IMG/VR virus record: IMGVR_UViG_3300043607_000009
Location: 441-64,440 of that record
Strand: one strand, 5' to 3'
Source: a virus
Length of the DNA stretch: 64,000 nt
This document shows positions 656 to 60,671 of the stretch, piece by piece; position 1 is the stretch's first letter, and each line of letters begins with the position of its first letter. The notes beneath the pieces are model-generated. The model worked only from the letters and a program-made list of their open reading frames with translations, was not told the origin of the DNA and did no database searches. The position numbers were made by a program, and so were the translations under genes.

Positions 656-1107
656 TGGTCCGCGCACGCTACAAGGTCGATGCGAGTCCGCTCTTCCGCG
701 CGATGAAGCGCGCGATCCGCAACGAAGTTGCCGAGCCCTTCTTCCGGATCGGGCCGTTCCAATTCACGTGGTGGGAATCGGCGCGCATGCGCGAGGGCGG
801 GCGCATCCGCAAGGTGCCGATGATCCACGTCGCGTATCAAGGCAAGTACGTAGGCCGCATCGAAGCCGATCGCTACCTCGCCGGTCCGAACGTATTCGAC
901 ACCAAGGAGGCACGGCGCGAAGTCGCCGAGCAGATCAAGTTGATTGTCACGCACCCGCGGAAAGCGGCGGCAGCGGAAGCCGCAGTTACGCTCAAGGCGA
1001 GCGGCTCTCCGCGGTGTGCGTGTTGTGGCCGGCCGCTCGCTGGCGTCGAGGATCGACGCAGCGGCGTCGGCATGATGTGCTCGCGCAAGTGGGGTTTCGC
1101 AAGATGA
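655..1107 (+). CDS. DUF6011-like zinc-finger protein
   Basis: ATG 655 coupled to upstream TAA; C-terminal CACCGRPL...GVGMMCSRKWG. Confidence 0.6.
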   Translation: MVRARYKVDASPLFRAMKRAIRNEVAEPFFRIGPFQFTWWESARMREGGRIRKVPMIHVAYQGKYVGRIEADRYLAGPNVFDTKEARREVAEQIKLIVTHPRKAAAAEAAVTLKASGSPRCACCGRPLAGVEDRRSGVGMMCSRKWGFAR

Positions 1108-1256
1108 CCGAGCGTTGGCGCGTAATCCGAGGTTACGACTATGAGGTATCTGATCTCGGGCGCATTCGACATCATGTTACGAAACATGTCATATCCGATT
1201 TCGAGGGCATGTGCTCATGCTTGTTCAGTGGGCACAACTGCGAAGAATTAGCGTAG
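1104..1256 (+). pseudogene. NUMOD4 motif fragment (truncated homing endonuclease)
   Basis: MTERWRVIRGYDYEVSDLGRIR matches NUMOD4; only 50 aa, no nuclease domain follows. Confidence 0.5.
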
Positions 1257-1513
1257 GCACGCTACTTACTCGTTTTCGACGAGGCTGGAATACCAGACGC
1301 GCTTTGACGCAATCTGTCCAGAAGAAATCGCGCCGCGGTGGTGGAAACCGGAAGACACACCCCATTTAACCAAGCGTGGGGCGAGGAGTGGGCGACCCCC
1401 TCGAATTGCACGTTCGAATCGTGCACGCGGCACCATTTTTCTAGGAACGATTTACTCGGGAACGGTTTTGCTATAACGTACCCCTCCCATACAAGAACAA
1501 CGGGGAAGGGTTC

Positions 1514-4500
1514 GTGGGGAGCCTCAACCCGCACTGCCAGAAGTGCCCGCTACACGAGACTAGCGACATCGTATGCCTTGCTGGCGAAGGTCGGCGCGGC
1601 GCCGAGGTCATGTTCGTTGGCGAAGCGCCCGGTGCGGAAGAAGAACGCGAAGAGCGACCGTTCGTCGGGCCGTCCGGCCGGCTGCTCCGTGATCAACTCA
1701 AACGCGCCGGCATCAAAGACGTGTTCATCACGAACACGGTCCGTTGCGTCGTGGGATCAACGGCGGTAAGTTTTCCATCGCCCCCCACGGTAGGGTACAA
1801 ACGCTATTACCAGGGCCTTCTCTTGACGATCAAGACGGCCTCGGGCAACGAGCTGGCCGTCACACCGAATCACCCGATACTCACGGCGCGTGGATGGGTT
1901 CGCGCTGAGGAGTTGCGCGGTCGAGATGACTACGTTCACTGCTTCGGGCGTAACTCTGGTACAACGATTCAGCCACAAGTAGACGACCGCCCACTTCTCG
2001 CGGAGCAAGTATTCAGTACGCTTGCGCTTAGAAGCAGCTCGTGCCGGGTTGTTGGTCATCAAATGGATTTCCACGGCGACGGAACCGATCGCGAAGTCGA
2101 GATTGTAAGGGCCGACAGCGCATTGTTCTCGGAACACGACTTTTCTCTTGCGCAGTTCAGAAGCGAACCAACGATCAGTAGCTCCTTGTTTGCCCCTCGT
2201 CTGTTCGGCCGTTATTGCGCTAGTCTGCGCTCGTTTTTTGATCGCCTCAGGGCTCCACAGCCGTCGATTAGCATAGGCAGCTTGGCGCGCTGGCTCCGAG
2301 AGGGCCACACGTTCTTCAGTCGTGAGCTTGCTCCAATATTTTTTCAGAGTGCGCCCTGTATCTGCGACCAAAGCAGCATCATGGTAGCTGCGGGCGTTGT
2401 AGCCGGCAGCCTTCAATCTAGCGGCAACAGTTCCATCACTAACCCCGAGAGCAACGGCGATCTGGCAGAAAGATTCTCCGCGCTTAAAGCGCCCGACCAA
2501 ATCATCGAGATCCAATCGCAGTTTTGGGCGGGCCATGTCTACAACTTCTCAACGCCGGGGGGGTGGTACATCTCGAACGGTATTATAACGCACAACTGCC
2601 GGCCACCGAGCAACCGACAACCGACTGCGACCGAGATCTCCGCGTGTCGTGGCTACCTCGCGGATGAGATCAAGCGTGTCAAGCCCAAGTATGTTGTGGC
2701 GCTTGGCGCAGTAGCCGCGAAGACGCTCTTCGTTGGCAAGTCCAAGGTCACGCAACACCACGGCGCCTTCGTGGAGCCCACTGACAAGCACCCCTACCGC
2801 GGCTACGTCGCTTACCATCCTGCCTTCACGCTGCGCGACCCTAGCAAGTTGCCGGCGTTCACTCAGGATCTAAAGCGATTGGCCCGTGCGGTCCACGGTG
2901 AAGAGCGAGCTCCCGAGGCGCCGTGGTCCCTACTGCGGCGCGGCAACCTGCGGAAGTTTCTGCGCGAGTTCATCGAAGCCCCGGAGTTCTCGTTCGACCT
3001 CGAGACCTCGGGCTACTTCATGCACGGGCCAGGCGGCTACATCAACGCGATGTCGATCGACCTCCCGCACCGCACGTGGGTCGTGCCGTGCATGGACTAC
3101 GATCCAATCAACAAGCGGCACAAGCACACTCCGTGGCGCCGCGGGAACGCCTTCCTCGAGCTCGTGAAGCTGTTGGTCAAGATCCAACGTGAGACTGCAA
3201 AGCGCTGCGTTGGCCACAACGGCAAGTTCGACAACCTCTGGCTCCGCCGTCTGACTGGCTTCTGGTTCAAGCTCACGTTCGACACGATGCTTGCGAGTCA
3301 CACGCTGGACGAGAATCGCGAGCACGATCTCAAAACGCTCGCGCGCACCATCCTCGACGCGCCCGAGTACGACCTCACGCCAAAAGAGAAGAAGGGAATA
3401 GTTGTACCGCGCAAGCTCTACCGCTACGGCGCTTACGACGCCTATTACACGCGCAAGCTCAAGGAGATCTTCTACCGCGAGCTCCAAGACGAACCGGAGC
3501 TCCACCGGCTGTATCACAAGCTGATCATCCGCGTCGCGCGCTCGATGGAGAACCTCGAGATGGTCGGCAAGACCGTGAATCTCGAGAAGTGGGACGCCAC
3601 CACGATCGACGTGCAGTCCGAAGTCATCTTGCTCGAGATCGAGCTCAACAAGATGGTAGGAAAGACCATTAACTGGAATTCGCCGCCGCAGATCGGCCGG
3701 CTCTTGTTCGATGAGCTCGGACTCGAGGTCACGCAGTGGACCGACGGAGGGGCTCCGTCCACGAGCGAAGAAGCGCTCTTCGATCTGCGCGACGAACACC
3801 CCGTCGTGAACAAGCTGCTCGAGTACCGCGAGCGCACCAAGTTCTTGGGCACATACCTGCACGGTCTGCGCGAGTATATGGTGGGGCAAACGCTCTACAT
3901 CCCCTACAAGATCCACGGCACGGTCGGCGGCCGCTACAGTTCGCCAATTCATTCGATTCCACGCGACGGCACCATTCGCAACCTCGTCGAAGCACCGGAC
4001 GGTTGGGATCTCTTCGTGGCCGACATCTCACAGGCGGAGCTCCGCTTCGCTGCACACTTGTCCGGCGATCTCGAGATGCGTCGCTGCTTCAAGAACAATA
4101 TCGACATCCACTGGCGCACGCTCATGTACACGCTCGGCCAAGGCTACATCGGCACCGAAGAGTACGTGGATAACGTGTGGGGCACGGTGAAAGCTCTCGG
4201 CAAGCGTGTCAACTCTATCGGCGATGCGTGCGAGGTCTTGCTGCTCGCCGGCCACGATCGCTGCACCGAGATTTGGAAGGGCTGGAAGGAAGGTCGCTAC
4301 CGCGCCAAGGCGCTGAACTTTGGGTTTTGCATCGCAGAAGGGCAACGTGTACTGACTCACGTTGGTCTAGTACCAATCGAACAAGTGCAGGACTGGCACC
4401 TTGTATGGGATGGCGTAGAGTGGGTATCCCATAAAGGAGTTCAATTTAATGGCTACCAAGAAGTCATCGAATATCAAGGGCTCAAAGCAACCCCAGAACA

Positions 4501-5662
4501 CGAAGTCTGGACGATGGGGGGGCAGAGGCTTCCCCTTTGGAGAGCGGCATCCGAAGGCCATAGACTTGAGAAAACGGGAGCGGGACTTACAGCGTTTCCC
4601 TCTAGGGACACTAGTCGTTTTAGTGGGAACGATTCGTCGCGTCGAGAGATCGCGGTTAGTGATCGACGTTACTTGCACAGCATGCGAGAAACGACAGACG
4701 CTTCTCGTAGACAATTTATGGGCGAAGAAGACAACCAACTGTCGCTGTCAAAGAGCCAAGAAATACTTCGATCCTCGATCCGAAACTCTTGGAATGCGCT
4801 ACGACACCATGATTCAGCGCTGCGAACGCGATACGCACGTTTCATCGAATCGCTACAAAGGGCGCGGAATCCAAGTGCTCTTCAAATCGCGAGAGGAGTT
4901 TATCCGTTGGGCGTTGAAGAAGTACCCCAACAGCGATTTCAAAGAATTGGTTTTCGATCGACGGAACAACGACGGGAATTACTCCAAGGGCAATCTTCGC
5001 CTGACAACCTACAGCGTCAACAATCGAAACAGATTAAGGTCTACGATCTAATCGACGCGGGGCCACGTCACCGTTTCACAGTAGAAGACTGTCTCGTACA
5101 CAACTGCTACGGGATGTTTGAAGACAAGTTCATCGAGCTTGCCAAGACCGACTACGAGTGGGAGCCCTCATGGGACGAAGCGCACTCGATGCGCCAAGGC
5201 TTCTTCGATCTCTACAGCGGACTCCCCAAGTGGCACGACAAAGAGAAGAAGATCGTGCGCAATAACGGCTTCGCACGGATCTTGTCGGGGCGTCGGCGCC
5301 GGCTGCCGGCGATCTACTCCAAGGAGAAGTGGATACGCGCAGAAGCCGAGCGCCAAGCGGTCAACATCCGCGTGCAGGGATTCATCGGCGACTACAAGTC
5401 CATGGCGCTCGTCGAAGCGGACGATCGGCTGAATCCGCACGAAGCGAAGCTCGTCGGCGAACACCACGACGCGCTCCTCGGGATCGTGCGCAAGGACTGC
5501 CACGATGTGGTGCTGCCAGTGGTGCGCCAGATCATGAAGGCCCCCGCGCTGCTCCGCGCGTTCAACATCAAGCTCGACATCCCCATGAATTCGGACATCG
5601 AGCTCGGACGATGGGGCGCAGGCGTCAAATATCAAGACCCAGAACAAAGGAGAGCTGCGTGA
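1514..5662 (+). CDS. polA: Family A DNA polymerase with N-terminal family-4 uracil-DNA glycosylase domain and two inteins (SPO1-like architecture; about 839 aa after splicing)
   Basis: UDG motifs CxxC, GEAPG..E...RPFVGPSG, TNTVR^CRPP; exonuclease motifs FDLETSG, GHNGKFD, YGAYD; polymerase motifs ADISQAELR, KALNFGF^CYG, HHDA. Confidence 0.95.
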   Translation: MGSLNPHCQKCPLHETSDIVCLAGEGRRGAEVMFVGEAPGAEEEREERPFVGPSGRLLRDQLKRAGIKDVFITNTVRCVVGSTAVSFPSPPTVGYKRYYQGLLLTIKTASGNELAVTPNHPILTARGWVRAEELRGRDDYVHCFGRNSGTTIQPQVDDRPLLAEQVFSTLALRSSSCRVVGHQMDFHGDGTDREVEIVRADSALFSEHDFSLAQFRSEPTISSSLFAPRLFGRYCASLRSFFDRLRAPQPSISIGSLARWLREGHTFFSRELAPIFFQSAPCICDQSSIMVAAGVVAGSLQSSGNSSITNPESNGDLAERFSALKAPDQIIEIQSQFWAGHVYNFSTPGGWYISNGIITHNCRPPSNRQPTATEISACRGYLADEIKRVKPKYVVALGAVAAKTLFVGKSKVTQHHGAFVEPTDKHPYRGYVAYHPAFTLRDPSKLPAFTQDLKRLARAVHGEERAPEAPWSLLRRGNLRKFLREFIEAPEFSFDLETSGYFMHGPGGYINAMSIDLPHRTWVVPCMDYDPINKRHKHTPWRRGNAFLELVKLLVKIQRETAKRCVGHNGKFDNLWLRRLTGFWFKLTFDTMLASHTLDENREHDLKTLARTILDAPEYDLTPKEKKGIVVPRKLYRYGAYDAYYTRKLKEIFYRELQDEPELHRLYHKLIIRVARSMENLEMVGKTVNLEKWDATTIDVQSEVILLEIELNKMVGKTINWNSPPQIGRLLFDELGLEVTQWTDGGAPSTSEEALFDLRDEHPVVNKLLEYRERTKFLGTYLHGLREYMVGQTLYIPYKIHGTVGGRYSSPIHSIPRDGTIRNLVEAPDGWDLFVADISQAELRFAAHLSGDLEMRRCFKNNIDIHWRTLMYTLGQGYIGTEEYVDNVWGTVKALGKRVNSIGDACEVLLLAGHDRCTEIWKGWKEGRYRAKALNFGFCIAEGQRVLTHVGLVPIEQVQDWHLVWDGVEWVSHKGVQFNGYQEVIEYQGLKATPEHEVWTMGGQRLPLWRAASEGHRLEKTGAGLTAFPSRDTSRFSGNDSSRREIAVSDRRYLHSMRETTDASRRQFMGEEDNQLSLSKSQEILRSSIRNSWNALRHHDSALRTRYARFIESLQRARNPSALQIARGVYPLGVEEVPQQRFQRIGFRSTEQRRELLQGQSSPDNLQRQQSKQIKVYDLIDAGPRHRFTVEDCLVHNCYGMFEDKFIELAKTDYEWEPSWDEAHSMRQGFFDLYSGLPKWHDKEKKIVRNNGFARILSGRRRRLPAIYSKEKWIRAEAERQAVNIRVQGFIGDYKSMALVEADDRLNPHEAKLVGEHHDALLGIVRKDCHDVVLPVVRQIMKAPALLRAFNIKLDIPMNSDIELGRWGAGVKYQDPEQRRAA
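1757..2536 (-). CDS. HTH + DUF559/Vsr-like endonuclease nested antisense within intein 1
   Basis: 259-aa ORF wholly inside the intein; N-terminal HTH (SFCQIAVALGVSDGTVAARL); EQCAVGPYNLDFAIGSVAVEIH matches the DUF559 core; TATAAT upstream. Confidence 0.8.
   Translation of the reverse strand: MARPKLRLDLDDLVGRFKRGESFCQIAVALGVSDGTVAARLKAAGYNARSYHDAALVADTGRTLKKYWSKLTTEERVALSEPARQAAYANRRLWSPEAIKKRAQTSAITAEQTRGKQGATDRWFASELRKRKVVFREQCAVGPYNLDFAIGSVAVEIHLMTNNPARAASKRKRTEYLLREKWAVVYLWLNRCTRVTPEAVNVVISTAQLLSANPSTRREYRVIRCDGQLVARGRLDRQEKALVIAFVPYRGGRWKTYRR
2582..2587 (-). promoter_or_regulatory. Putative -10 box for the antisense endonuclease
   Basis: Perfect TATAAT on the minus strand 45 nt upstream of ATG 2536; no good -35 at 17 bp spacing. 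Confidence 0.35.
4328..5104 (+). mobile_element. Intein 2 (259 aa) in polymerase motif B
   Basis: Cys1 (CIAEGQRV), block B TPEHEV, block F VYDLIDAG, C-terminal VHN then Cys+1; removal restores KALNFGFCYG. Confidence 0.92.
4449..5051 (+). CDS. HNH homing endonuclease nested in an alternate frame within intein 2
   Basis: 200 aa; CTAC..NCRC, RYDTMIQRC, YKGRGI, FDRRNNDGNYSKGNLR; SD AAGGAG at 4434-4439, 9 nt before ATG. Confidence 0.88.
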   Translation: MATKKSSNIKGSKQPQNTKSGRWGGRGFPFGERHPKAIDLRKRERDLQRFPLGTLVVLVGTIRRVERSRLVIDVTCTACEKRQTLLVDNLWAKKTTNCRCQRAKKYFDPRSETLGMRYDTMIQRCERDTHVSSNRYKGRGIQVLFKSREEFIRWALKKYPNSDFKELVFDRRNNDGNYSKGNLRLTTYSVNNRNRLRSTI

Positions 5663-5940
5663 GAGTCAATCTATACAGAGAAGAAATTACCGACCGCATG
5701 AAGATCGTGCGCAAAAGTACCGAAGCTGGCGACTTCATTGGCGTGCGCCTCTTCATCGAAACCCCCGTGACACTTCACAACAAGCCGCAAGCAACGCAGA
5801 TTGTGCGCGGGCCATACATGCGCACTGACGGGGATGACGATTCAAGCGCCGTGACCTTCTGGGCACTCGCGTCTGATACTCGAAAGCTCCGTGAGATGTT
5901 CTACAAGGCATGGAAGCTCCTCGAAGAAGAAGGCGCGTGA
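5659..5940 (+). CDS. hypothetical protein
   Basis: GTG 5659 overlaps polA stop; AGGAG upstream. Confidence 0.55.
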   Translation: MRVNLYREEITDRMKIVRKSTEAGDFIGVRLFIETPVTLHNKPQATQIVRGPYMRTDGDDDSSAVTFWALASDTRKLREMFYKAWKLLEEEGA

Positions 5941-6418
5941 CTTGGGGTTTCCACGAACCGGAGCATGCGTAGATTGTTCGTCTTCTATACGACAGACATG
6001 CGGACGGCACCTGTACTGCGTCAAGTGCAAGTACAAGCGCCGGCTCAGAGCTCAATGGCGTTGGCGAGTCAGAACTGGTTCTATCAAAGACCCAACGAGG
6101 GGCGAGCCGCGCAAGAATCCGAAGAACTACCGCGGGGCGAAGAACCCCAACTGGCGTGGCGGCGGCATAGACTGGCAGCAACGACAGTTCAGAAAGAAGC
6201 GCTGCGATCGTTGCAAAAGTAAAAAGAAATTAGAGCTTCATCACAAAGACCGAAACCGAAGCAACTGGAAACCGAGTAACTTGGAGACGCTCTGCGAGAG
6301 TTGTCATCGTGACGAGCATCTCCCGTCCCGAGTCAAAGCAATCAAAAGTGCTGCTTCTCGAGGGCGCTACAGGAAAAACCTATGGCTGAACGCAATCACA
6401 CATCTCAAAGCGAGATAA
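5891..6418 (+). CDS. HNH endonuclease (start uncertain, possibly TTG 5942)
   Basis: CDRC...LELHHKDRNRSNWKPSNLETLCESCHRDEH. Confidence 0.8.
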   Translation: MRCSTRHGSSSKKKARDLGFPRTGACVDCSSSIRQTCGRHLYCVKCKYKRRLRAQWRWRVRTGSIKDPTRGEPRKNPKNYRGAKNPNWRGGGIDWQQRQFRKKRCDRCKSKKKLELHHKDRNRSNWKPSNLETLCESCHRDEHLPSRVKAIKSAASRGRYRKNLWLNAITHLKAR

Positions 6419-58696: not shown

Positions 58697-58859
58697 GATT
58701 ACTACCCCACGGGTCTTTTATCGAACGCGGATGGTCTCGCGAAGAACCCCCCACCGCAAGCGGCTAGGGGACAATTACTTCGAATTACTTCGTGAGAATT
58801 ACACCGTTCACTCCACCGCCTCCGTTACGTCAAATCGAGAGCGATGATTGAAATAGCAC

Positions 58860-58888
58860 TTGACTCCACCGGAGACGTGGAGTAATCT
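58860..58888 (+). promoter_or_regulatory. sigma70-like promoter
   Basis: TTGACT-17 bp-TAATCT at the strand switch; overlapping ACTCCAC/GTGGAGT inverted repeat. Confidence 0.65.
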
Positions 58889-58953
58889 ACATACACGGTC
58901 GAGATACGACCTGACTGGCGCCTCGCAGGAATACAGGGGCGACTGGAGACACC

Positions 58954-59331
58954 ATGACGACGACGACCAAGACCCTCCGTTACGGCAAAGGCTACTCGGG
59001 CAAGCTCGGCAACAAGTGCTGGATTGCCGAAATTACCGGCACCGACGACAAATACGGTCTCAAGCGCGTATTTCTCGAACCTTCCACGGTCGAGCGCGAG
59101 CACTTCAATCGCTCGCGCACGATCGTCAATTTCTCGTATGAGCTGGGGACCAACGGCCTGTACGAGCTGAGCGAAGGAGGCGAGCGCCAGTTCGTCGGCA
59201 TGTTCGCCGACGAGGACTCCGGTGCCGTCAAATGGATGCAGCTGTCTGACGCGCGCGTGAAAGCGTGGGCTGCGGCGCTCGACGAAGGCAAATCCGACAG
59301 TGAGGCTCGCGTTGCGAGCGAGGGGCTCTAG
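58954..59331 (+). CDS. early hypothetical protein
   Basis: GGAG SD; first gene after promoter. Confidence 0.65.
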   Translation: MTTTTKTLRYGKGYSGKLGNKCWIAEITGTDDKYGLKRVFLEPSTVEREHFNRSRTIVNFSYELGTNGLYELSEGGERQFVGMFADEDSGAVKWMQLSDARVKAWAAALDEGKSDSEARVASEGL

Positions 59332-59334
59332 TAC

Positions 59335-59625
59335 ATGACCAATCACCCGCGACGTTCCCGCGCACGCCTGGCTCGATACGGAGCCAGACTGCGCACCGTC
59401 GACGGCGAGCGTGTCGTCGAAATGGTTGACCCGAACGACAACGCACGCCGCCGCTACCAGTACCGCGCGACCGGCGGCGGCACGCTCGAAACACGCATTC
59501 TTCGTGCGGACGGATCGCCGATGCTCGAAGGGTCTGCGTGGGAGGCATACGCAGACAACGAGCTTGCGGCGCTGCGCGGCGTCCGCGGCACGTATCACCC
59601 GATACTTGATCCGCTCGGGCTCTGA
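59335..59625 (+). CDS. early hypothetical protein
   Basis: Contiguous ORF. Confidence 0.55.
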   Translation: MTNHPRRSRARLARYGARLRTVDGERVVEMVDPNDNARRRYQYRATGGGTLETRILRADGSPMLEGSAWEAYADNELAALRGVRGTYHPILDPLGL

Positions 59626-59628
59626 AGC

Positions 59629-60318
59629 ATGAACGACGACATCAGCACGTTTCAGCTCATGGAGCTGTTCCCGGACGAGATCGACGCGCGCGCGTACCTC
59701 GAAAAACGCCGATGGGGTGACGCGCCGTGGTGCCCGCGGTGCAGCGACGAACGGATCACGACGCGCGGCGGAGATCGTGTCGGCTATTACCGCTGCGGCG
59801 CGTGCTCGCTCGAATTCACCGTGCGCAGCGGGACGCTGATGGACCGCAGCCATGTGCCGTTGGCCGGCTGGCTCGCGGCTCTGATGTATCGCGATCAGTC
59901 GATCTCTGACATGGCGCGCGCGCTCGACGTCACTCGCAACTCTGCTGCCAGGCTGCGCGATGTGCTGACTGCCGCTCCCACGGCGCTCGACGCGGCCGTT
60001 GGCAAACTCGTCGAGACCGTGGCGACGCCGCGCGGGACGCCTGCCCCGCCGAAGCGCTACCGTGTAATGCGCGATCCGGTGCTCAGCGTTTGGAGCGGCA
60101 TGCTTTCGCGCTGTACGAATCCGCGCAGCTCCTCGTATCGCAACTACGGCGGCAGGGGGATCACCGTCTGTAAGCGCTGGCGAGTGTTTGCGCATTTCCG
60201 CAGCGATATGAGTCCGCGACCGCCGGGTACGACGCTCGATCGCTACCCGAACAACGACGGTGACTACGAGCCGGGCAACTGCCGCTGGATCAGCGGTGGA
60301 AGTACCGCGGCGTGGTGA
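59629..60318 (+). CDS. chimera: IS1595-transposase N-terminal Zn-ribbon fused to C-terminally truncated HNH
   Basis: ISTFQL.ELFPD...AR.YLE.R.W....CP.C...YRC..C...FTVR.GT; then WSGMLSRC..YGGRGITVCKRW..LDRYPNNDGDYEPGNCRW. Confidence 0.75.
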   Translation: MNDDISTFQLMELFPDEIDARAYLEKRRWGDAPWCPRCSDERITTRGGDRVGYYRCGACSLEFTVRSGTLMDRSHVPLAGWLAALMYRDQSISDMARALDVTRNSAARLRDVLTAAPTALDAAVGKLVETVATPRGTPAPPKRYRVMRDPVLSVWSGMLSRCTNPRSSSYRNYGGRGITVCKRWRVFAHFRSDMSPRPPGTTLDRYPNNDGDYEPGNCRWISGGSTAAW

Positions 60319-60410
60319 CGACTCCGAACGGTCCGCTCTTTGTCTTCGAAGAGCCGGCCGACGCGCAGTCGACGCTCCTCGTTCCCAGCCGCACCGCGCG
60401 AGCGTGACAC

Positions 60411-60671
60411 ATGCCGATGGCACACAACGGCCTCGCGAAGCTCGTTGAAGAGAGCGGCGAGCTCTCGCAAGTCGCGGGCAAGCTCCTTCAGTATCCGCAC
60501 GGCGAGCACCCTGACGGCCAAGGCCCGTTGCTCCACCGCCTCGAGCTCGAGATGGGTGACGTTCTCGCGGCGCTTCGCTTCGTCGCGCAGAAGCACCAGA
60601 TCGACTCCTCGCGCGTGAACTTCTACGCCGCGTCGAAACTCGAACTATTCAACAAGTGGGACAAAGAATGA
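60411..60671 (+). CDS. MazG-like nucleotide pyrophosphohydrolase
   Basis: KLVEESGEL...ELEMGDVLA. Confidence 0.7.
   Translation: MPMAHNGLAKLVEESGELSQVAGKLLQYPHGEHPDGQGPLLHRLELEMGDVLAALRFVAQKHQIDSSRVNFYAASKLELFNKWDKE

Follow-up and report, generated by a model that had tools for sequence, protein, structure and literature searches.

Intein 2 of a phage DNA polymerase, a probable composite mobile element with a putative homing endonuclease gene in a second reading frame

The usual picture of an intein is that of a single polypeptide with two roles, splicing and the cutting of DNA. The locus described here raises the question of whether these roles can be lodged in two reading frames of one stretch of DNA and, if so, how the second frame is translated, what its product does, and how the arrangement arose. 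The window, a stretch of 64,000 nucleotides (nt) from IMG/VR record IMGVR_UViG_3300043607_000009 (positions 441 to 64,440), is nearly the whole of this 64,682-bp virus record, the completeness of which is rated 100%. It contains a gene that fuses a uracil-DNA glycosylase (UDG) to a family A DNA polymerase (PolA) and that is interrupted by two inteins. An earlier reading made from the sequence alone had proposed that the second of these, intein 2, holds an overprinted, independently translated homing endonuclease. From sequence comparisons and structural models, we consider it likely that intein 2 is a composite mobile element in two reading frames, with an internally initiated homing nuclease. 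Dual-frame selection, conserved Shine-Dalgarno (SD) and start signals, a HINT model, and a patchy distribution support the earlier proposal, while the canonical HNH type that it had assigned to the nuclease does not hold.

Intein 2 and the open reading frame that overlaps it

The limits of intein 2 were set from the sequence and from an alignment to 20 homologous inteins. It extends from Cys1 (TGC, 4328) to a terminal His-Asn (5099-5104) and lies within motif B of PolA, precisely where the sequence-only reading had put it, as KALNFGF/CIAEGQRV...CLVHN/CYGM (slashes mark the junctions). Its blocks comprise C1, a block B with T55-P-E-H58, a block F with the sequence VYDLIDAGPRHRF that includes D240, and the terminal H258-N259. 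In the 21 in-frame inteins, C1, T55 and H58 of block B, V238 and D240 of block F, and N259 are invariant, and Cys, Ser, or Thr occupies the +1 position across the homologous inteins. Removal of intein 2 leaves KALNFGF-CYGM, which is colinear with the KAINFG[FY]-[IVL]YGM of intein-less relatives. At this conserved position of motif B, the spliced polymerase deviates from its relatives, as it carries F-C-Y-G compared to Ile, Val, or Leu in all 14 intein-less alleles included in the junction alignment.

The AlphaFold2 (AF2) model of intein 2 has a complete HINT fold built from its confidently predicted ends, matching the Mtu RecA mini-intein with a Z of 16.1 over 117 residues and a root-mean-square deviation (rmsd) of 2.4. 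In total, 76 chains reach a Z of at least 8 against the model, and all of those listed are inteins or HINT relatives of the Hedgehog, BIL, or Vint type. Thus, the elements by which a class 1 intein is recognized, namely Cys1, Cys+1, the T-x-x-H of block B, the terminal His-Asn, the HINT fold, and an in-frame position, are all found in intein 2, and with its intact catalytic residues and HINT model it looks competent to splice. The middle of the intein [amino acids (aa) ~95-232] is predicted to be unstructured, with a pLDDT (predicted local distance difference test) score of 34-65. Family searches returned no Pfam, NCBIfam, or nuclease match for intein 2 in its own frame, the central region included, in agreement with the earlier statement that this frame has no nuclease motif. 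The GC content is ~0.50 within intein 2 and ~0.60 in its flanks.

The +1 frame of the same region contains an open reading frame (ORF) that matches PHROG 374, "HNH endonuclease" (8.5e-20), PHROG 3377 (8.4e-15), and PHROG 8790 (2.3e-9); the PHROG families that it matches (374, 3377, 8790, and 2081) are annotated as HNH or restriction endonucleases. Profile searching, which the sequence-only reading had suggested, thus found a nuclease family in the +1 frame and nothing in the intein frame. A search of 5.8 billion proteins retrieved 42 homologues with 34-70% identity. Their alignment has 13 invariant residues, all of which are kept in the window (C76, C79, C98, C100, R117, R124, C125, G140, R171, G176, Y178, N182, and N194), and the four cysteines C76, C79, C98, and C100 form an N-terminal Zn ribbon. 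The AlphaFold model of the product, made with the homologue alignment, has a mean pLDDT of 86 and values above 90 for aa 31-195, while the first 30 residues, which overlap block B of the intein, are unconserved and poorly modeled. At the other end, the ORF stops inside block F, as had been noticed before, with a TAA (5049-5051) spanning the codons for Leu241 and Ile242.

The start signals of this ORF are formed by intein codons. An AAGGAG does lie 9 nt before the ATG, but the codons that supply it are K36-G37-V38 and not the H-K-G given earlier. Nested copies of the ORF, that is, copies lying within a longer host frame, were found at 22 further loci (20 from IMG/VR, a closer polymerase relative termed L092, and a Caulobacter phage), and in 21 of 23 nested loci an SD-like motif precedes an ATG or GTG by 6-12 nt. 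Twelve nested loci have their ATG at intein nt 146, where it arises from Tyr-Asp, Tyr-Gly, Tyr-Glu, or His-Asp codons, and the corresponding SD (AAGGAGG, AAGGAG, GAGG, or AAGG) is located 9-10 nt upstream and arises from K/R-E/K-V/I codons. In the window and L092, the ATG at nt 146 has been lost and the ORF starts instead 24 nt upstream, at nt 122, with an (A)AGGAG of its own; the AGGAG of L092 stands at the same place as the AAGGAG of the window. Because the start and the SD moved together, internal initiation is favored over frameshifting. The stop codons of the nested ORFs fall at two places, either in block F, 50-53 nt before the end of the intein, as in the window, or in a cTAGta within the L-V-H-N codons, 8 nt before the end.

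Both frames are maintained by selection. When the codons of the nuclease ORF were permuted synonymously, none of 20,000 permutations left the polymerase frame stop-free (mean, 9.8 stops), and sampling with the codon usage of the exteins gave P = 0.0011 for a stop-free polymerase frame over the ORF. The third frame contains 12 stops across the same interval. Among 80 IMG/VR loci that encode a relative of the nuclease, 20 have an ORF of 2-4 kb that extends without a stop across the entire nuclease match, always in the relative frame seen in the window; one locus (L037) carries the nested nuclease in the other frame (+2), as do the Jerseyvirus polymerases described below. The host frame is stop-free in 22 related nested loci, while non-nested homologues have mostly 5-30 stops in the corresponding frame. 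The sequence-only reading had named disruption of the HNH frame in homologues or reads as evidence that would speak against it; the frame is intact in the 22 nested loci, and the contigs from other studies contain no indels over 4297-4856.

This conclusion was further supported by the distribution of variable codon positions in the 20 +1-frame sequences. Intein position 3 is the most variable one in aa 1-60 and 236-259 (0.65-0.67 compared to 0.26-0.35), while in aa 101-235 the most variable one is intein position 1, which corresponds to position 3 of the nuclease. This shift indicates that purifying selection acts on the intein frame at its ends only and that its middle is merely kept stop-free. 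Pairwise identity in the intein frame follows the same pattern, with means over the 20 loci of 56-58% for aa 1-60, 64% for the C-terminal part, and 14-25% for the middle. Likewise, the window and L092 are 74-76% identical in the splicing parts, while in the central part they share 71.6% identity in the nuclease frame compared to 38.7% in the intein frame. The coordinates of the features are given in Table 1.

Table 1. Features of the polymerase locus and of the nuclease paralogue (window coordinates)
Feature	Coordinates	Strand	Remarks
UDG + exonuclease + family A DNA polymerase precursor	1514..5662	+	Open over 1382 codons; two inteins
Intein 1	1745..2596	+	In UDG part; Pfam Intein_splicing 5.5e-6, TIGR01445
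Antisense ORF over middle of intein 1	2536-1757	-	259 aa; helix-turn-helix (HTH) + DUF559/Vsr-like
Intein 2	4328..5104	+	Class 1; 259 codons; inserted in PolA motif B
N-terminal splicing region of intein 2	4328..4603	+	aa 1-92; blocks A + B; pLDDT 96-98
SD-like AAGGAG	4434..4439	+	9 nt 5' of ATG 4449
Overprinted HNH-like putative homing endonuclease gene	4449..5051	+	200 aa; +1 frame relative to polymerase
In-frame linker of intein 2	4604..5029	+	aa 93-234; -1 reading of nuclease gene; open, unconserved
Predicted beta-beta-alpha-metal motif	4941..5033	+	Nuclease aa 165-195; AF2 model, invariant columns, PacI comparison
C-terminal splicing region of intein 2	5030..5104	+	aa 235-259; blocks F + G, His-Asn; pLDDT 85-97
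Cys+1 codon TGC, C-extein	5105..5107	+	Ile, Val, or Leu in intein-less relatives
Free-standing paralogue of overprinted nuclease	59629..60318	+	229 aa; Zn ribbon + same nuclease module

A predicted nuclease that lacks the canonical histidine

The sequence-only reading had described a complete HNH domain in the +1 ORF. The match to an HNH family of PHROG agrees with this description, but the canonical His is replaced and no Pfam HNH model matches. In the predicted motif, a first strand (167-171) ends with D170-R171, a loop with Y178 follows, and N182 precedes a second strand (183-187); the helix that comes next (188-195) contains N191 and N194. The canonical HNH His, expected at the end of the first strand, is absent; the residue after D170 is the invariant Arg R171. 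Because this catalytic His is missing, nuclease activity is not assured. The structural Asn and the helix with metal-binding Asn or His by which HNH/His-Me finger proteins are recognized are represented by N182, N194, and N191, of which the first two are invariant and the third is at least 90% conserved. Y178, located in the loop between the strands, is also invariant. Thus, the protein looks like a His-less member of the HNH superfamily (His-Me finger), with R171 at the place of the His, as judged from the alignment and the model.

The best match among solved structures is PacI (3m7k; VIA-align), with a Z of 6.5, an rmsd of 2.5, and 16% identity over 80 residues (aa 105-198 of the nuclease), a score and length within the range that chance folds can reach. 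A further structural match is Gme HNH, with a Z of 3.5. PacI is a Zn-bound enzyme in which a loop Tyr takes over the role of the absent catalytic His (PMC5714182). The predicted model of the overprinted nuclease resembles PacI (PDB 3m7k/3ldy; His-Me finger group 20) in having a Tyr in the loop and no catalytic His, Y178 being the putative counterpart of the Tyr of PacI; in contrast, PacI is a restriction enzyme and not a homing endonuclease. We therefore use "PacI-like" as a lead and not as a statement of membership. Searches of PDB sequences with phmmer and with a profile of 39 homologues gave nothing significant (GATA zinc finger, E 0.033; I-HmuI, E 2.9), and an Atlas search returned viral clusters without names; those with a name that came nearest (NUMOD, AP2, and DUF723) score below 0.9 and serve as leads only.

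Distribution, history, and surroundings of the element

Motif B is uninterrupted (KAINFG[FY]/[IVL]YGM) in 15 of 17 related UDG-PolA genes, which are 31-68% identical to the gene of the window, and intein-less alleles were found only in more distant relatives. L092 has both intein 2 and its +1 ORF. Contigs of three other metagenome studies, which together span 4297-4856, differ from intein 2 at 0/309, 0/225, 2/318, and 1/248 positions and have no indels, while the extein pieces on those contigs differ at 33/398 and 20/155 positions (8-13%); the first difference listed downstream is at 5128. A near-identical intein between differing exteins shows that it passed recently from one diverged polymerase to another and that short flanks were co-converted with it. 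Thus, sequence comparison points to intein 2 being a recently mobile element. In another relative (L098, 3508-3884), an in-frame insertion of ~125 aa lies just 5' of motif B and matches neither intein.

The unit of intein plus ORF occurs at no fewer than six kinds of insertion site, which include variants of motif B, a helicase-like gene (L031), and others. Its presence in host genes other than PolA indicates extein switching, as far as sequence comparison tells. The sites outside motif B of PolA are those of L016, L027, and L066, with flanks W..GW.PDVV/CIDYAD, and that of L031, with ..PSPGKT/C.

Relatives also exist in cultured phages. The Caulobacter phages GB2A (L087), RW, RLK, and KcrB have the nested ORF in the +1 frame, as seen by inspection of GB2A and by near-identical tblastn placement of the others, and the polymerases of Jerseyvirus (Salmonella) have it in the +2 frame in finished GenBank genomes. 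In GB2A, an unannotated stretch of 219 aa homologous to the nuclease lies in the +1 frame (2995-3651) of the coding sequence (CDS) 1017-3968; in Salmonella phage vB_SenS-EnJE6 (L088), a similar stretch of 248 aa lies unannotated in the +2 frame (2980-3723) of CDS 1550-4654. The GenBank records of these phages annotate "DNA polymerase" or "intein-containing DNA polymerase precursor" alone.

The presence of two different nuclease families in one gene had earlier been taken to suggest that free-standing endonucleases repeatedly reinvaded mini-inteins. For the HNH-like nuclease, our results do not favor this history, as the nested genes fit one clade and the surrounding inteins are homologous. The nested genes group together in a tree built from 86 members of the family. 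A quick tree set the Caulobacter-type group apart, which would imply multiple independent nestings; however, a tree constrained to unite all nested genes and six free ones in one clade has a higher likelihood than the free quick tree, and the approximately unbiased (AU) test does not reject the single clade (p 0.91). As the nested genes can be united in one clade and the inteins that hold them are homologous, the sequences favor, over repeated reinvasion, a simpler history in which the nuclease gene was captured once, long ago, and the composite intein then spread into many genes. It would follow that the polymerase acquired two ready-made composite inteins afterward.

Three free-standing members of the nested clade were found in bacterial assemblies (L001, 4318-5540; L004, 4675-5570; and L002, 5001-6274). 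They adjoin DNA_pol_A fragments of 215, 82, and 286 aa, respectively, which match polymerase aa ~750-895, just 5' of motif B; the fragment of L002 is encoded on the opposite strand, with an overlap at the 3' end. All three loci are islands that also contain genes for an integrase, a resolvase, Vsr, or type I restriction-modification. We considered whether these copies are decayed inteins and rejected this possibility, as no remnants of splicing blocks flank them; they are thus true free-standing copies.

The polymerase that hosts the element is the sole one seen in this genome rated 100% complete, which, together with the intact catalytic residues, suggests that intein 2 does splice. Its ORF has Pfam matches to DNA_pol_A (4.3e-53), UDG (3e-26), and DNA_pol_A_exo1, a 3'-5' exonuclease (3e-12), and its N-terminal part is a family-4 UDG (TIGR00758 UDG_fam4, 2.9e-40). 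None of the 17 related polymerases has intein 1, not even L092, in which intein 2 is present. The ORF antisense to intein 1 matches DUF559 (NF007294, 4.1e-6; Pfam DUF559, 0.0016). The earlier observation that two nuclease families lie out of frame in two inteins of one gene therefore stands, one being antisense and DUF559/Vsr-like and the other HNH-like and in the +1 frame.

Further nuclease sequences lie on either side of the polymerase gene. Just 5' of it, within 1107-1369 (+ strand), a 49-aa piece with a NUMOD4 motif (Pfam 3e-7, above the cut-off) is followed in a different frame by a short HTH-looking ORF (1211-1369), and the two look like a broken free-standing homing-endonuclease gene (HEG). 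A canonical HNH gene (5891-6418, + strand; PF01844, 21.5 bits compared to a cut-off of 21.4) begins ~230 nt 3' of the polymerase stop. Thus, counting the NUMOD4 piece, the ORFs of both inteins, and this HNH gene, four nuclease genes or remnants flank and interrupt the polymerase. Far from it, a search of the phage's own genome with the overprinted nuclease retrieved the free-standing paralogue (E 4.5e-5), which matches PHROG 8790 (3.5e-31), PHROG 374 (7.3e-31), and Pfam Zn_ribbon_IS1595 (3.4e-8). A 532-codon antisense ORF (58825-60423) encloses it completely; this ORF matches no family and is probably spurious.

Alternative explanations, known systems, and meaning

If intein 2 is a composite element with an internally initiated homing nuclease, it would work as follows. 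Ribosomes translating the polymerase would read through 4328-5104 and make a class 1 intein, the N- (~92 aa) and C-terminal (~25 aa) parts of which would form the HINT domain, joined by an unstructured spacer of ~140 aa; the intein would then splice out and leave F-C-Y-G in motif B. On the same mRNA, the AAGGAG would direct internal initiation at the ATG at 4449, and the +1 frame would be read up to the TAA in block F. The product would be a 200-aa Zn-ribbon/His-Me-finger nuclease of the HNH superfamily, PacI-like, with an Arg and a Tyr where the canonical His acts. It would most likely cut intein-less motif-B alleles of co-infecting phages, and the intein would then be copied by repair, together with the nuclease gene and ~25-30 nt of flanking DNA in which the Cys+1 codon lies.

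Several results weigh against this reading. In addition to the missing His and the chance-range score of the PacI match, Foldseek found no PDB structure similar to the nuclease model at E ≤ 0.001, and no Pfam or NCBIfam nuclease model, PF01844 and PF13392 included, matched the ORF at E ≤ 0.1. No sigma-70-like promoter was found within the scanned interval 4000-5300, so expression of the nuclease must rely on the polymerase mRNA. None of the RNA runs searched for the stretch contained it. Last, no joint skipping intein 2 was found in four runs, where contigs cannot show absence.

An alternative is that the +1 ORF is translated and selected but serves a purpose other than homing, be it degradation of host or competitor DNA, exclusion of related phages, or aid to the polymerase or intein, or that it encodes a DNA-binding protein without nuclease activity. 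This would agree with the Arg found in place of the canonical HNH His in every member, with the three nested-clade members that exist without an intein in bacterial assemblies, and with the free-standing paralogue that the phage also has. Against it, Y178 is invariant and PacI is active with a Tyr in that loop, and the position of the ORF coincides exactly with the slot that homing endonucleases occupy in inteins. Moreover, a patchy, near-identical intein in polymerases that are 8-13% apart is the signature of active homing, which needs a nuclease. We consider a non-homing role unlikely. It is hardly probable that the nuclease is instead made by +1 frameshifting from the polymerase frame, as a fusion to the N-extein and the first ~40 residues of the intein. 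Such a fusion is compatible with an ORF on the same strand and in the +1 frame that is open for 10 codons 5' of its ATG (from intein nt 92), and with the failure to find an internal promoter; however, the start and its SD-like motif are kept in 21 of 23 loci and shifted together (nt 122 compared to nt 146), many loci have a +1-frame stop just 5' of the start, no slippery site was noted, and the first 30 residues of the ORF are neither conserved nor well modeled. Thus, the conserved and jointly moved SD and start led us to reject the frameshift fusion.

Inteins often lose their endonucleases, and the ORF might be an unexpressed, decaying relic that owes its lack of stops to chance or to constraint on the intein frame. 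We regard this as very improbable and rejected it because the wobble positions over aa 101-235 reveal that purifying selection acts on the +1 frame but not on the intein frame; furthermore, all the invariant residues are kept, and the ORF is intact in 22 other nested loci that have diverged to ~30% identity. As the window is a metagenome-assembled virus record, two compensating indels could in principle hide an in-frame HNH domain and produce the two-frame layout as an assembly or sequencing artifact. Yet over 4297-4856 the contigs of three other studies show 0-2 substitutions and are free of indels, finished phage genomes from GenBank and the 20 IMG/VR loci share the relative frame of the window, and a polymerase frame that is stop-free across the ORF is not expected of an artifact. 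Independent contigs and recurrence at other loci thus leave this explanation with a negligible chance of being right, and it was rejected.

The principle of an intein endonuclease in an overlapping frame is already known, having been published in 2025-26 by the Gogarten lab. Actinophage inteins were described with LAGLIDADG or VSR-like genes on the antisense strand or with endonuclease VII-like genes out of frame ("frame 3"), and HNH was reported in frame only (Gosselin, Arsenault, and Gogarten, bioRxiv 10.1101/2025.01.02.630785). Like those inteins, intein 2 has a slot that is open in the intein frame without recognizable structure and a separate nuclease ORF there, and the origin proposed for them, a free-standing HEG invading an intein, is shared; their antisense VSR-like type matches intein 1 of the window. 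The marks of such inteins, a foldless open slot, an intact nuclease ORF in relatives, and signs of transfer, are all present in intein 2. Unlike them, intein 2 has a Zn-ribbon PacI-like His-Me nuclease in the +1 frame with an SD and ATG hard-wired in intein codons, it resides in a soil-metagenome phage with a UDG-PolA fusion and with relatives infecting Gram-negatives (Caulobacter and Salmonella), and it is one of two different noncanonical inteins in one gene. A cyanobacterial dnaX intein with an out-of-frame endonuclease (Phillips et al., bioRxiv 10.64898/2026.09.14.751524) is similar in its overlapping-frame endonuclease, sporadic distribution, and proposed secondary invasion of a mini-intein; it differs in residing in a cellular host gene with no phage context.

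Two further systems share part of this layout. The hidden out-of-frame HNH of the ShiLan type, located in an insertion in a phage DNA methylase (Arsenault et al., Genes 2025, PMC11855218), resembles intein 2 in that an HNH-type ORF overlaps an insertion that is in frame and free of stops within a phage gene. It has no splicing domain and no detectable ribosome-binding site, and a leaderless GTG start was proposed for it, whereas intein 2 has a complete HINT domain, a strong SD, and an ATG. In fractured genes (Dassa et al., NAR 2009, PMC2677866), an HEG of the free-standing type also occupies the endonuclease slot, in line with the model in which an HEG invades an intein. There, the host gene and intein are split into two ORFs; in contrast, intein 2 remains one continuous ORF because the host frame has been kept stop-free. 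What is new here is the nuclease family, the frame, the hard-wired start signals, the hosts outside actinophages, and the presence of two noncanonical inteins in one gene. The value of the finding thus lies in extension and detail and not in the first discovery of the phenomenon.

In intein 2, the predicted splicing and nuclease roles lie in two reading frames of one DNA, with start signals made of intein codons, which provides a clean natural case of long dual coding (~600 nt) with a readable division of labor. The two-frame layout explains why gene callers and annotators miss such nucleases, as in the GenBank entries for the Caulobacter phages and Jerseyvirus. With relatives present in cultured phages, direct tests of splicing, internal initiation, and homing are possible. 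More tentatively, and with slightly less than even confidence, we suggest that the element belongs to a large, old, and so far undescribed two-frame mobile lineage, in which one intein family and one His-less PacI-like nuclease would have co-evolved since a single capture, with start signals derived from conserved intein residues (K-E-V...Y-D), at six or more sites, in phages of Gram-negative hosts. If true, the nuclease would define a new family of homing endonucleases with a tyrosine-based mechanism. Independently of this, the His-less PacI-like family to which the locus points could supply new rare-cutting enzymes. The arrangement supports the view of intein origins in which splicing came first and the endonuclease was captured later.

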